64,000 bases of DNA from Eledone cirrhosa. Lineage: Eukaryota. The translations under genes and the position numbers were made by a program. Of this stretch, positions 22,048-62,996 are shown in pieces. Location of the stretch: positions 8,618,001 through 8,682,000 of the forward strand of contig OZ024751.1 in the NCBI GenBank assembly GCA_964016885.1, given 5' to 3'. Under the pieces are notes generated by a model. It was given only the letters and a program-made list of their open reading frames with translations. It was not told the origin of the DNA and made no database searches. Every line of letters starts with the position of its first letter. Within the stretch, counting starts at the first letter, position 1.

Positions 22048-24576
22048 TTGTTATATTTGGGGAGGGTCATATTTTCGTAATATTGCCAGAATTAATAACA
22101 GAACACACTCACTGTTTGGTTGGTTTTCGCTTCTCGCTGTCTTTTATATCTGCGATCTAACTTATTCGGTCCTCAATGTTGCCATTGACTGACCGGCGGT
22201 CAAAGTTGATACAGATACAATATAGACACAAACACATATATATAGTTTACATAATTTACATAAATCTTTCGTTGCACATCTGCAACATCGTCAGTGGTGT
22301 TATATTCATTGTTCCTCCTGTTGTGTTGTATGTCTACGCCATTTTTTTTTTGTTCAGTCTGTCTATATATTTATTTGTTTATTTGCTGGTTTGTTTATCT
22401 TATTTTATTTTGTCTTCTTTGCGCATGCGTTTGCGTGTGTGTATAGTGTTATGTGTGATGTGTGACTAGTGTGTATAGTGTTGTGTCTGCTGGGTGACTA
22501 GTGTGTGTTTATGTGCTTGTTGTTATTGTGCTTGTGTATGTATTTATTTATCTTATTTTATTTTATTTTATTTACTTATTTATACTTCTCTTAGGTCAGT
22601 GTTGTTTGTTTGGGTGTTGTTGTTGTTCCACTCATTCTTTCTGTTTAGCTTTGGTCTTCTAATTTCTATTTCACTGGCCTCTCTGATTTGCCTATCTGCT
22701 GGGTCATTCCTATGTTTAGATATTATTCTAATTTCTATGTTAGTCTATGTTACCGTCATGTTGTTGTCTAGCATGTTCGTATAGTACTGACCCGTTTTTT
22801 CTTCCTTTTAGTTCCCCCCAGTGTTGGTCTATCCTTTCACCTATGCTACTAGCTGTCTCACCTATGTATGTTGTTGTCATGTTTCTGCAAGTACCCTCTG
22901 TACATCTTATGCTATAGACTACGTTTCTAGTTTTACAGTTTATCCGGGGGTTCACCTTACATATGATACATTTCCTATTGGTACAGTGGGTTTTCTTAAA
23001 AGGGTAGGTTTTGCTGATCAGGGATTTTATGGTGGTTCCTGGCTTTTCTACCACCTTTATTTTTAAGTGGGTCTTTCTCAGGGCCTTTCTACACTGGTTA
23101 GCTAATTTCCCTCCAGGGGTGGCGTCCACAAACATGACACTCTGATATCTCTGGTTGTCGTACCATGATGTGGCCTTCCCTATCTTATGTCTAGCCCTAT
23201 CTAAGCTATTCCATGATTTGCTCCTGTATAGTGGGCAAATTCCTTTCATGTCCAGTTCTATGAGGGTCTTATACTTTTCCATGGCTCCTTCGTATACTCT
23301 GACTCTGTCTCTTTGGTTGTAGCCAGAGAACTGCATGCGGTTGATGAAGTGTTGGATGTGTCCTTCCATTTCTGTTGGGTCGCACATGCTGGACACATTC
23401 TTCATCACTCGTACCAAATCTGCGATCAGAATATTAAACTTAGCACTACTGGACATTGCTGAGATTTTGAGTATCAAGTATTTGGAGGCCATGGGTTTAG
23501 CATAGTGTGAGTGGAGAATTTGGGCTCTCTCGTCTATAGTGTTAATCCAGAGTTCTGTGTCTAATACAGGTAGTCTATTGTTAGGGTGTTTGGAAGGGAA
23601 GTCTATAGTTACAGTTATACTCTGGTGTATGGAATTAGCTATCTGCTGGATGCTTTCCATCGTGCTACGTTCTAAATCAAACTTGTTAGTGCTCTCTAGT
23701 GGGGGTGTTCTTATAACTATATTGATGTCGTCTACATAACGAAAGTACATGATGAGGTCTATGGAGCTTTCATTAAGGAGATCTTTAAGTCTCCTTTCCC
23801 ACCATACCATGAAAAGGTTGGCAACATCACCAGCTATGCTGACGCCGATGGCTGCTCCCTCATTTTGGGTGTAGATTTTCTCATTGAACTTAAATATGTG
23901 GCCCTTTAGGGTAGTTTTGATACTAGCCCCTATTGCATGTGCGACCATTTTTCTTACCTGATCAGTGTTTTGGGGGGTCCGTATAGCTTTGGTCCACCCA
24001 ATACACCTTCCTATGGGAGTCTTTTTAGCCATTGAGGTTATGGTGGAGGTCTACCTCTTATAGGTCTACTAGGGCAGAAACATCTAAGGTCATGGCTGTC
24101 TAGGTAGTCAGTGTCGTAGGTAAGTCTAAGTAGGAGGCCCAGTTCGTCTGTGTCGACGTCGCAGAACTCCACCTCACTCTCAATGATCATCTCCACACAT
24201 CTTTCCACAGCAAAATCAATGTTAATGGATGGGTACAGTGACACCACATCCATGCTGCCTATTATGCAGTTGGATAGGCTCCTGTTTTTGTTGCACTCAC
24301 TGATTCTGCTGAGGAGGTCCTCTGTACTTTCACATACATCTGGGGACATCTTGATTATGGGGCGTATAACCATTGAGAGGAAGTAGGAGATCCTGTAGTT
24401 GCTAGCTATATTAGCTCCACATACGGGTCTTGTTGGTGGTCCTGTTGTCGGGTCGTCGACTGTCTTGTTATTAATTCTGGCAATATTACGCAAATATGAC
24501 CCTCCCCAAATATATCAATATCTGTTTCGACACACGATTTCATATAAAAAACCTCGCAAAACTAATTCATCGCCGC
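22048..24576 (-). mobile_element. PLE family A1 copy 2 with inverted terminal segment (24466-24576, +)
   Basis: Near-identical to 6816-9226; inverted 3' terminus joined at the 5' truncation; (TA)n flanks. Confidence 0.95.
22581..24465 (-). pseudogene. PLE RT-GIY-YIG, frameshifted (ORF pieces 24038-24465 and 22740-24032)
   Basis: Same motifs as 7083-8699; 1-bp deletion near 24045 and 1-bp insertion near 22742. Confidence 0.9.
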
Positions 24577-24614
24577 TATATATATATATATAGCAATATA
24601 TATATATATATATA

Positions 24615-59838: not shown

Positions 59839-60636
59839 CATGTATATATATATATGCATATATATATATATATATATATATATATATATATATATATATA
59901 TATATATATATATATATATATATATATATATTCATATATATATATATTCATATATATATGTATATATATATATATATTCATATATATATGTATATATATA
60001 TATTCATATATATGTGTATATATATATATTCATATATATATGTATATATATATATATTCATATATATATATGTATATATATATATTCATATATATATGTA
60101 TATATATATATTCATATATATATTTATATATATATATATTCATATATATATTCATATATATATATATATATTCATATATATATGTATATATATATTTATA
60201 TTCATATATATGTGTATATATATATATTCATATATTTATGTATATATATATTCATATATATATGTATATATATATATATATTCATATATATATGTATATA
60301 TATATATATTCATATATATATGTATATATATATATTTTCATATATATATGTATATATATATATATTCATATATAAATGTATATATATGTATGTATATATA
60401 TATTCATATATAAATGTATATATATATATATATATATATATATATATATTCATATATAAATGTATATATATGTATATATATATATATATATATTCATATA
60501 TAAATGTGTATATATATATATATATACATATATATATTCATATATATATATAAATATATATATATATACATATATATATATATATATTCATATATATAAA
60601 TATATAAATATGTATATATATATATAAATATATATA

Positions 60637-62996
60637 GTATTAGTTATACTATTTATGGTTATGTAAATACAAAACCTTAAGCAGTTGTAAGTATTTTACA
60701 CACACTCTAAATAGTGGTAGGCAGTATTGTATTACTACCGTATTACCAGTAAGTTAAGTAGCTCAATGTAGATGATTTACAGAGCAGTTATATGAAATAT
60801 AAGAATCAAAGAACTGTTCAAAACATTATTGTGCTTACAGCTGTTTCCTCCAAACCGAGGTTTGGATTCTTCGGAGCAATTTATTAATGCATGGACAGTT
60901 ATATGACCTCCTTTTCAGCCGAGAGACATACCAATACCAAAATCCTATATCTACCACACAGACTTCCGCATTGCATTATAACCAGCGGACTAACGCACAG
61001 GATAATTGTAACTGTAGAGCTAATAGAACTTGCCCTTTACATAAAAAATGCCTAACCAAGGATGTCATATACTCATGCACCGTCACGACTAATAACTCTT
61101 CAGAAACCTGTGTAGGCTCCACTTCTAACTGCTTCAAAATCAGATATAATTCGCACATCCACTCGTTCAAAAAGCACAGCCTAGCCAACTCCACCTCACT
61201 TTCTAGCTACATACACTATCTAAAATCTAAAAATAAACCATACACACTCAAATGGGAAGTGATAGGAAGCGCGACCTCGTACAAACCACCTAATACATTC
61301 TGTAACCTCTGTATACTAGAGACACACAATATTATCTTCTCCAACCGTAACCTACTTAACAAAAAATCTGAGGTGTTTGCAACTTGCCAGCACCGCCTCA
61401 GACATTCCTTCCAAAACTTTAAGCCCAATATATAGCAATGTCGGACTGGAACCTAACACCACATCTAGCATCATACACCAGAGACATACCTTATACTACA
61501 TACCCAACACTAACTGATCCGTTATAACACAAACAATGACATCCCTCTGGAACCCTTCGCAGGGAGAATACCCATTTATACCTCTACGGCAGGTGTGACA
61601 ATATCCACGCACTTGAAAGGCACTACATCGCTCTAAGGGTAATTTGAGCATGAATTGTTCGGTTGGATAGTGTGGTGCAGAGGAAACACCTTCCTTAGAC
61701 AGATGTAACATGATTTAATCGAGTAGCGCTGTTGACCAGTAGGACCGGACTGCTGAGCGCAGTGAGTGAATGCATTCCAACTGCCGTGCGGGTTGTACGT
61801 ATATGGATGCTCTGACGGTCAGAGAGGGGTCGCGAGGACTGCGGATGGACCTTTGGCCGGCCTGGGGATAATTATCTTTCGACATCAAATGTAGCAAGCG
61901 ATGACCCAGATCTAACCAGAGATCATTGGGTCCTGAAGCAAGCCTGCAATCACCGCGCCTGGTCATATGAGCAGACTACAACCACAGAGATCATTAATTT
62001 AGAATCCTCGCTCATCATCTATAATTTCCATTTGTGGCACCTTAAGATGGGTTAATCAACCATAATAATATGATCACCTTCAGCATAACTTAATTAAACT
62101 ACTCTATAGTTAATACACTTTATGCTTTAAAAATCTCTCTTGGAAGATGCGCATCACCATGGAATTTAGGGTCTATATTGGGACACATTTTTATGGCTAG
62201 ATATAGAAACCCCAGAGTTACCTCCCCGCACGCATTAACTCCCCTTAGCCACACACACACTTCCGGGCGGTATTCAATGGCGTTTCTCGAAACGTAACAA
62301 CCTCCTGTATCGAACTAAAGAACACCAGACAACGATCTCTAACTGGATTGTCGTGGATTATGTGAAAGGCATATAATCGAAATATACACTCCCTTGACCA
62401 TGAAAATGCCGAAGTACATGAATTACTTGACATCCCTGCGCTGTGCATCTCCAATACTTATAACACTTTTAATGCTTGCACTATCTTTAATGCTTATAAT
62501 ATTTCTCCACACACAGACTATATCAATCATATAAAGAATTTGCCACCAGATCTACCAACCTAACACTCTTATTTACCTACCTAAGTGCCTCTACCACATA
62601 TCTCTCTGCCACACTATATAAACAAGACGCACATGCGTGCCACACATATAACATTTGCACTATATAACCGCTTATCTTCATGTTGTATTTTAACCTATAT
62701 TTATTTTTGATTTTTGATTGTACCTATTAATATAAATGTAATCTCGAAGTGTGTACTGCCACTCTAAATTCTGTAATGAATGTTGACCCACAATGTTTGT
62801 ATATATATCAATGTTTGAATATGTATTGGTATGTCTCTCGGCTGAAAAGGAGGTCATATAACTGTCCATGCATTAATAAATTGCTCCGAAGAATCCAAAC
62901 CTTGGTTTGGAGGAAACAGCTGTAAGCACAATAATGTTTTGAACAGTTCTTTGATTCTTATATTTCATATATTTCATATATTTCATATATTTCATA
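60637..62996 (+). mobile_element. PLE family C copy 2 with inverted long terminus (60637-60933)
   Basis: Inverted arm, GIY-YIG remnant, 1.5-kb 3' region, HHR, (TA)n flanks. Confidence 0.93.
60934..61435 (+). CDS. PLE GIY-YIG endonuclease domain, 5'-truncated (Nematis-like Cys pattern)
   Basis: CNCR...CPL..KCL..DVIYSCTV...VGST..FKIRYNSH...CNLCILE...LLNKKSE...CQH. Confidence 0.85.

Follow-up and report, generated by a model that had tools for sequence, protein, structure and literature searches.

Two-armed Penelope-like insertions in the Eledone cirrhosa genome nearly always pair one short with one long end

Elements in the window

The stretch of 64,000 nucleotides (nt) analysed here (the window: positions 8,618,001-8,682,000 of contig OZ024751.1 in the 3.0-Gb genome of Eledone cirrhosa) is dense in (TA)n arrays, and masking these leaves its repeats as head-to-head inverted pairs. 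By the motifs of their translations, the coding elements among them are assigned to known clades of endonuclease-containing (EN+) Penelope-like elements (PLEs). The two arms of an insertion nearly always end differently, one at a fixed short end and the other at a long end that carries the sequence further by a family-specific tail; this pairing and its probable origin in reverse transcription are the subject of this report. The insertions are as follows, in window coordinates.

6817..9284, plus strand: A1, Penelope-like (Neptune-like), 5′-truncated and one-armed, with a long end; reverse transcriptase-endonuclease (RT-EN) frame at 7077-8699
22048..24576: A1, two-armed; minus-strand body 24462-22048 ending short, plus-strand arm 24466-24576 ending long (+58)
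24615..29432: B, two-armed; minus-strand arm long at 24615, plus-strand arm (upstream pseudo-long terminal repeat, pLTR, at 26888-27186, then body) short at 29432; tail 42 nt
30282..30672: J, mini insertion with a 161-nt tail; left end long, right end short
35858..36495: non-coding tandem family of about 320 bp with a hammerhead-like motif and a tail of about 35-45 nt; left end long, right end short; second copy at 50281-50723
39363..40714: two-armed insertion; tail 113 nt
41103..41727: 470-bp non-coding family, formerly termed L; tail 61-64 nt; related copy at 47172-48098
41775..42387: A2; long end on the inverted arm (41775), short end on the body (42387)
42506..42663: C, mini insertion; long arm (42506) wholly within the tail, short arm of 28 nt (42663)
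42688..44603: C (Hydra-type); short end with a duplicated 9-mer on the inverted arm, long end (+163) on the body
44899..45170: M, mini insertion with a 74-nt tail; left end short, right end long
48115..49693: two-armed copy of an abundant family, with an 80-nt tail
49787..49982: K, an exception; its left end is the family's short end and its right arm stops 110 nt upstream of that end
50913..51064: A1, mini insertion; short left, long right
52446..54283: A2; short end on the inverted arm, long end (+60) on the body; a hammerhead-like core lies near 54035-54062 and a YY1-like motif near 53975
59794..59838: A2 stub; long-end arm of about 10 nt (weak alone) and short arm of 40 nt
60637..62996: C; long end on the inverted arm (60637), short end on the body, which carries four TATTTCATA units (62960-62996), the short end being placed at 62969-62996

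The original prediction, made from the window alone, had already described such ends. Its coordinates for the A1 and A2 insertions at 22048, 41775, 50913, 52446 and 59794 are right, with measured tails of 58 nt in A1 and 60 nt in A2, and so is the difference of about 163 nt in three C insertions (42506, 42688 and 60637). Its approximate tails agree with the measured 42 nt in B, 161 nt in J, 61-64 nt in the 470-bp family and 74 nt in M, whereas K, entered there as a short/long pair differing by 110 nt, is not one. It missed the pairs at 48115-49693 and 39363-40714. As it had stated, the long end may lie on the body (52446, 42688) or on the inverted arm (22048, 41775, 60637).

Coding capacity and clade assignment

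Translations of A1, A2 and B match RVT_1 in Pfam (E 1e-3 to 1e-12), and inspection places GIY-YIG-like motifs C-terminal to RT. The A1 frame carries CTNRKCIIC followed by C..C and two His, and A2 is alike; since the Neptune clade is characterized by a CX2-5CxxC linker and CCHH in EN (PMC8557442), both are assigned to it by these motifs. In B, a Cx4Cx7C linker runs across a frameshift and is joined by CEKC, making Neptune and Nematis both candidate clades. Three A1 copies within about 45 kb (6817-9284, 24462-22048 and one about 18 kb left of the window) have a common 5′ truncation point, which may go back to a source that was itself truncated, to duplication on the spot or to a hotspot for stopping.

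Family C has an intact unit of 4,201 bp at 3369-7571 of locus L082, encoding 819 amino acids (aa) from the first Met. Neither RT nor EN was matched by Pfam in this protein; its frame contains YRDD and VIYSC...YVG. RWR, DKT, a CNCRANRTC linker and CNLC are each kept in 106-118 of 121 aligned proteins. The Hydra clade is defined by RWK, DKT, a CxCx5C linker, absence of CCHH and a (TA)n target (PMC8557442), and family C is assigned to it by its C-terminal EN, RW[KR], DKT, CxCx5C linker, lack of CCHH, terminal CxxC, (TA)n target and hammerhead; unlike the Hydra elements described in the available text of that paper, its unit measures 4.2 kb rather than usually under 3 kb, and its tail 163 nt. With copies 98.3-99.9% identical, at least three lineages and about 1,000 candidate matches genome-wide, family C appears intact, very young and probably still active.

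A pattern scan predicts a hammerhead-like minimal core with stem II upstream of the short end in C, A1, A2 and B, the core of C and B having CCGA in place of CUGA. Rfam returned one hammerhead family match, on a 467-bp repeat only, and otherwise low-complexity microRNA matches; sequence searches of PDB gave nothing significant. Hammerhead cleavage was rejected as the origin of either end, the predicted cuts lying 46 nt (C) and 155 nt (A2) upstream of the short end. At a single locus, L240, the two arms stop 7 nt away from the predicted cut (3998 vs 3991).

Discrete ends and their pairing

The ends are discrete and not scattered at random. TA-flanked ends of A2 fall at the short site in 46 cases, at the long site in 58 and elsewhere in 4, and those of C in 25, 30 and 0 (some loci overlap). 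Pairing was counted in several sets of insertions, each genome search being represented by its best 40 matches, so that the counts are samples of well-preserved copies. An anchor upstream of the short end of C led to 24 insertions, of which 22 were short/long, one long only and one short only; all 22 two-armed insertions were thus short/long. With an anchor on the tail, 32 C insertions were obtained: the short partner was clean in 19, had an internal jump in one and was tiny in four, two were ambiguous, six lacked a second arm and none was long/long. For A2, short/long pairs made up 16 of 16 long-anchored insertions, nine of ten upstream-anchored ones and all five in 864 kb of contiguous DNA. 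Family B was tallied by hand, covering 35 of 37 matched insertions and one incidental insertion: 18 were short/long (three irregular, one incidental), one was short/short and none long/long, while among the 35 examined 14 were one-armed and three unresolved.

When the sets not anchored on the tail are pooled, 54 of 56 two-armed insertions are short/long, two short/short and none long/long (P=2e-14 against independent choice of ends); without two window copies the figure is 52 of 54. The tail-anchored sets likewise contain no long/long pair (0/40). Three automated long/long calls, including L084, were taken as internal tandem pieces and left out. These samples from across the genome bear out what had been proposed from the window.

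A family-blind scan of the 864 kb for two-armed candidates, which includes outliers and low-complexity false matches, gave 110 candidates, comprising 81 asymmetric, seven intermediate and 22 symmetric ones. Tails were mostly constant within a family, ten copies of one family having tails of about 80 nt and five of six copies of another 88-92 nt. Ten of the 22 symmetric candidates were inspected; nine proved to be cut by an internal TA tract and one was a mixed-family short/short join. Among the other 12, one is the window copy at 50281-50723, which has an internal TA-like tract, and the rest look low-complexity or are unresolved. J was considered as a fixed miniature inverted-repeat transposable element and rejected, its arms varying and ending either short or long. 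Near-strict short/long pairing thus holds in three families from at least two clades, and the occurrence of one short and one long end is real and general, although half of it was already known.

Properties of the two start sites

The original prediction had placed the long end at the RNA's 3′ end. In tandem copies, the element continues past the long end into the open reading frame (12 insertions of C, five of B and one of A2), and because it does so the long end appears to be internal; the sequences do not support its identity with the RNA 3′ end. Sequence at the short site is rich in AU and homologous to TA over 2-5 nt. At the long end, homology to TA amounts to 3-4 nt in C and A2 and is absent in B. 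Near-identical decamers follow both sites in C and the same 5-mer follows both in A2; about five further families have likewise a similar stretch after both sites, about seven families with tandem copies in all. In 17 of 30 families CTC[CT] comes next after the short end (background 13%), the families being hand-picked and some of them related.

At the C short end, four of 29 loci and more elsewhere have a 9-mer in additional copies not found on the partner arm; they were seen in the window (62960-62996 and 42688) and at L077, L200, L211, L236 and L240, while the repeat at L223 is inherited. By analogy, these copies resemble telomerase-style realignment.

Relation between the two arms

Among 42 C pairs the short arm is the deeper in 15 and the long arm in 16, and in 11 the 5′ ends lie within 45 nt of each other, against 1.6 such near-equal pairs expected by permutation. 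In 29 A2 insertions the corresponding numbers are 10, 8 and 11. The argument of the original prediction that interchangeable sides speak against simple 5′ inversion is upheld by the C counts.

Partner arms of C have 99 of 100 lineage markers in common (21.5 expected), and 24 of 47 private alleles occur on both arms and 23 on one. In A2, 54 of 131 recurrent alleles occur on both arms against 11.5 expected. Young C arms differ at 7 of 11,538 sites, while older A2 arms have diverged by 3.6% and have only 10 of 127 private alleles in common; later gene conversion is disfavoured because older A2 arms share recurrent alleles far above chance and private ones mostly not.

The 5′ ends of long arms cluster at the short site (four of 13 local ends in C, P=0.02; three of ten in A2, P=0.09), as expected if a trailing RT meets a leading RT. 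At the head-to-head junctions, 23 of 27 blunt or overlapping cases have an overlap of 1-4 nt, and 16 of the 27 overlap by at least 2 nt against 16% expected. Short locally templated repeats were noticed at the junctions of L087, L088, L064, L226, L231 and L240, which resemble, by analogy, polymerase-theta joining or RT slippage.

As to the template, an arm exceeds one unit in eight of 42 C insertions, in one of them on both arms, and seven of 13 upstream pieces extend beyond the presumed transcription start. Private alleles are common to tandem duplicates about as often as to partner arms (18/32 vs 24/47). A circle and long tandem transcripts both fit these data. In A2, 19 of 58 arm 5′ ends fall within 41 nt (equivalent to about 53945-53985) at a motif that we take to be YY1-like, with three and six in the flanking bins, and this cluster is likely to mark the transcription start.

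Proposed mechanism and alternatives

Priming from both ends is supported by these observations, and most probably each of the two nicked target strands primes at a fixed internal site of its own on one RNA, the cDNAs being then joined head to head. Both strands of the (TA)n target would be nicked, and their two 3′ ends would prime on the same RNA, the short site serving one and the long site the other. Priming would rely on 0-5 nt of pairing with UA, and telomerase-like realignment would sometimes occur at the short site. A protein dimer presumably holds both sites, which lie 39-165 nt apart depending on the family, and would assign one to each strand. The template would be a tandem or circular transcript, and joining would occur by an RT jump onto the partner cDNA or by microhomology-mediated end joining, second-strand synthesis being thereby supplied. 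Of the two-cDNA idea in the original prediction, two-ended priming, joining and an AU-rich short site are retained and the long end as RNA 3′ end is dropped. That both arms come from the same lineage is observed; that they come from the same molecule is what we infer. A fuller cycle of obligate twin priming, in which an asymmetric RT-endonuclease dimer acts on a hammerhead-made RNA circle with two copies of the start signal, primes both target strands with realignment as in telomerase at the short site, rolls past the unit boundary and finishes with an RT jump, is a tentative extension and rather doubtful as a whole; if true, it would explain the tail, the inverted pLTR, the partial tandem and second-strand synthesis together.

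Several observations weigh against coupled priming on one RNA. The pairing has short/short exceptions (L120 in A2, L244/L246 in B), a mixed A1/A2 short/short head-to-head join about 80 kb left of the window, which possibly reflects two different RNAs or nesting, and L280, with a long and an intermediate end. One-armed copies occur (2/24 and 6-8/32 in C, 14/35 in B). K belongs to a family with a 63-71-nt tail, whose short end is K's supposed long end, and a second long end at +47-49 in six A1-like copies departs from one fixed long terminus. The (TA)n flanks on both sides mask target-site duplications. In B and the 320-bp family the long end is not followed by a counterpart of the start motif, and a conserved RNA fold bridging both sites was sought and rejected (z from +1.3 to -3.8). 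Inserted bases are present at 15 of 42 junctions, some from variants near the joint. Allele sharing identifies the same lineage or locus and not the same molecule, "private" alleles may stem from unsampled lineages, and 77 recurrent A2 alleles are confined to one arm. Private alleles are shared in 3 of 12 cases where the short arm is deeper vs 18 of 30 where the long arm is, the shared rate per kb being similar in the two classes and 10 of the 18 coming from L237. Moreover, the anole element in vitro showed no difference in start site between strands in the available account (PMC11167929).

In an explanation drawn from the literature, a single cDNA is made, which folds back or primes itself (self-priming, PMC3846280), and the double-stranded pLTR so formed is trimmed at the short site by the endonuclease (EN-mediated resolution, PMC8557442). 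Near-symmetric junctions in 11 of 42 C insertions, two of them at the same position 3608, would suit it, as would the higher private sharing where the long arm is deeper and the short arm of L089, which shares a private allele only with the adjacent upstream copy. Fold-back, however, requires one arm to lie inside the other, whereas the short arm is deeper and tail-less in 15 of 42 C and 10 of 29 A2 insertions; single fold-back is excluded for these pairs because the deeper short arm has a tailed partner. Several long arms are confined to the tail, and the extra short-end 9-mers look like polymerase restart and not like a cut, so that fold-back is an unlikely account. It is also improbable that two RNA molecules of one source locus are used, one copied from each site by an asymmetric dimer. 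Such a scheme would explain overlapping arms without strand displacement, and allele sharing cannot tell molecule from locus, but the excess of near-equal 5′ ends (11 vs 1.6) and the long arms stopping at the short site suggest that polymerases meet on one template.

If only the short site were internal, the long end would be the RNA 3′ end of transcripts running into flanking TA repeats. Such transcripts may exist, most genomic copies ending at the long site beside (TA)n, and the 3-4 nt of TA homology at C and A2 long ends agree with them. Against this stand the sequence that goes on past the long site in 18 insertions (12 C, 5 B, 1 A2), the conserved motif downstream of it, the B long end without TA homology and the internal position of both sites in PMC11167929, and this reading has little chance of being correct. 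Hardly credible is a secondary origin of pairing and arm identity by gene conversion between inverted arms or by palindromic-read assembly. Although the few differences between young C arms (7/11,538 sites) could be read in this way, the older A2 arms are 3.6% apart and share 10 of 127 private vs 54 of 131 recurrent alleles, sharing persists with kb-long spacers between the arms, and neither process makes fixed unequal ends.

Comparison with known retroelements

EN+ PLE insertions are described with an inverted pLTR and a tail at either end, often at one end only (PMC3846280, PMC8557442). The partial tandem or inverted pLTR arrangement with a tail is found in the present elements, which also resemble the published ones in the inverted 5′-truncated arm, (TA)n targeting and the pLTR hammerhead motif. 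The tails given in the available text of these papers are 30-40 nt long, compared with 39-165 nt here, and are treated as optional products of EN resolution or self-priming, whereas here pairing was counted and is near-strict. In vitro, the tail of the green anole element Poseidon PAc is delimited by two RT start sites, both internal, the hammerhead cut is not at the ends, and both strands of an AT-rich target are cut and extended by a modelled dimer (PMC11167929). The two internal start sites, the tail match and the AT-rich target recur here; the accessible part of that paper contains neither a strand preference nor an inverted-arm model, while in Eledone the sites appear coupled, lie far apart and in many families both lead into a shared CTC motif. 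Metazoan non-LTR retrozymes are hammerhead tandem units for which circular templates have been proposed, giving cDNA beyond one unit, and their mobilisation by PLEs has also been proposed (PMC7761336, bioRxiv 10.64898/2026.07.22.740005). Unlike retrozymes, the longer-than-unit arms here belong to an autonomous coding element; the non-coding families here show the same short/long footprint.

In a literature search, which left older subscription reviews outside its scope, no paper came up that describes strict pairing or twin priming in PLEs. As far as the available text goes, a one-end tail, two internal start sites and the cutting and extension of both strands are already published (PMC8557442, PMC3846280, PMC11167929); new here are the proposed coupled fixed-site twin priming, the same-template evidence, the shared start motif and arms beyond one unit.

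Another comparison is with L1 twin priming, said to go back to Ostertag and Kazazian in 2001, in which the second target strand reportedly primes internally and microhomology joining of the two cDNAs yields an inversion. In L1 the first primer acts at the 3′ terminus of the RNA, the second site varies in position, there is hardly any overlap between the arms, and only a minority of insertions are inverted. The present insertions would be alike in internal priming by the second strand and in the joining of two cDNAs by microhomology, but both sites are fixed and internal, overlap between the arms reaches up to 4 kb, and a young family usually gives rise to two-armed copies. Integration would thus work like twin priming but not in its L1 form.

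Other features of the window

A 467-bp tandem repeat of 2.7 copies (45261-46500), on which the Rfam Hammerhead_HH9 matches score below the gathering threshold, appears retrozyme-like. The window also contains a 98-bp tandem repeat of 4.2 copies (17370-17824) and a 182-aa frame (20520-21068) with a putative resemblance to the acidic end of a pogo/Tigger transposase.

Significance

The origin of tandem and inverted structures in PLEs is a named open problem (PMC8557442, section 15, in the text available), and a near-strict rule in at least two clades, together with arms that appear to derive from one template, turns it into a specific model that can be tested in the anole in vitro system. Family C, intact and very young, would be a good substrate for testing twin priming. 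If the model is true, a retroelement in the sister group of telomerase would normally prime from both target strands, and the spread of non-coding hammerhead repeats would be explained as well.

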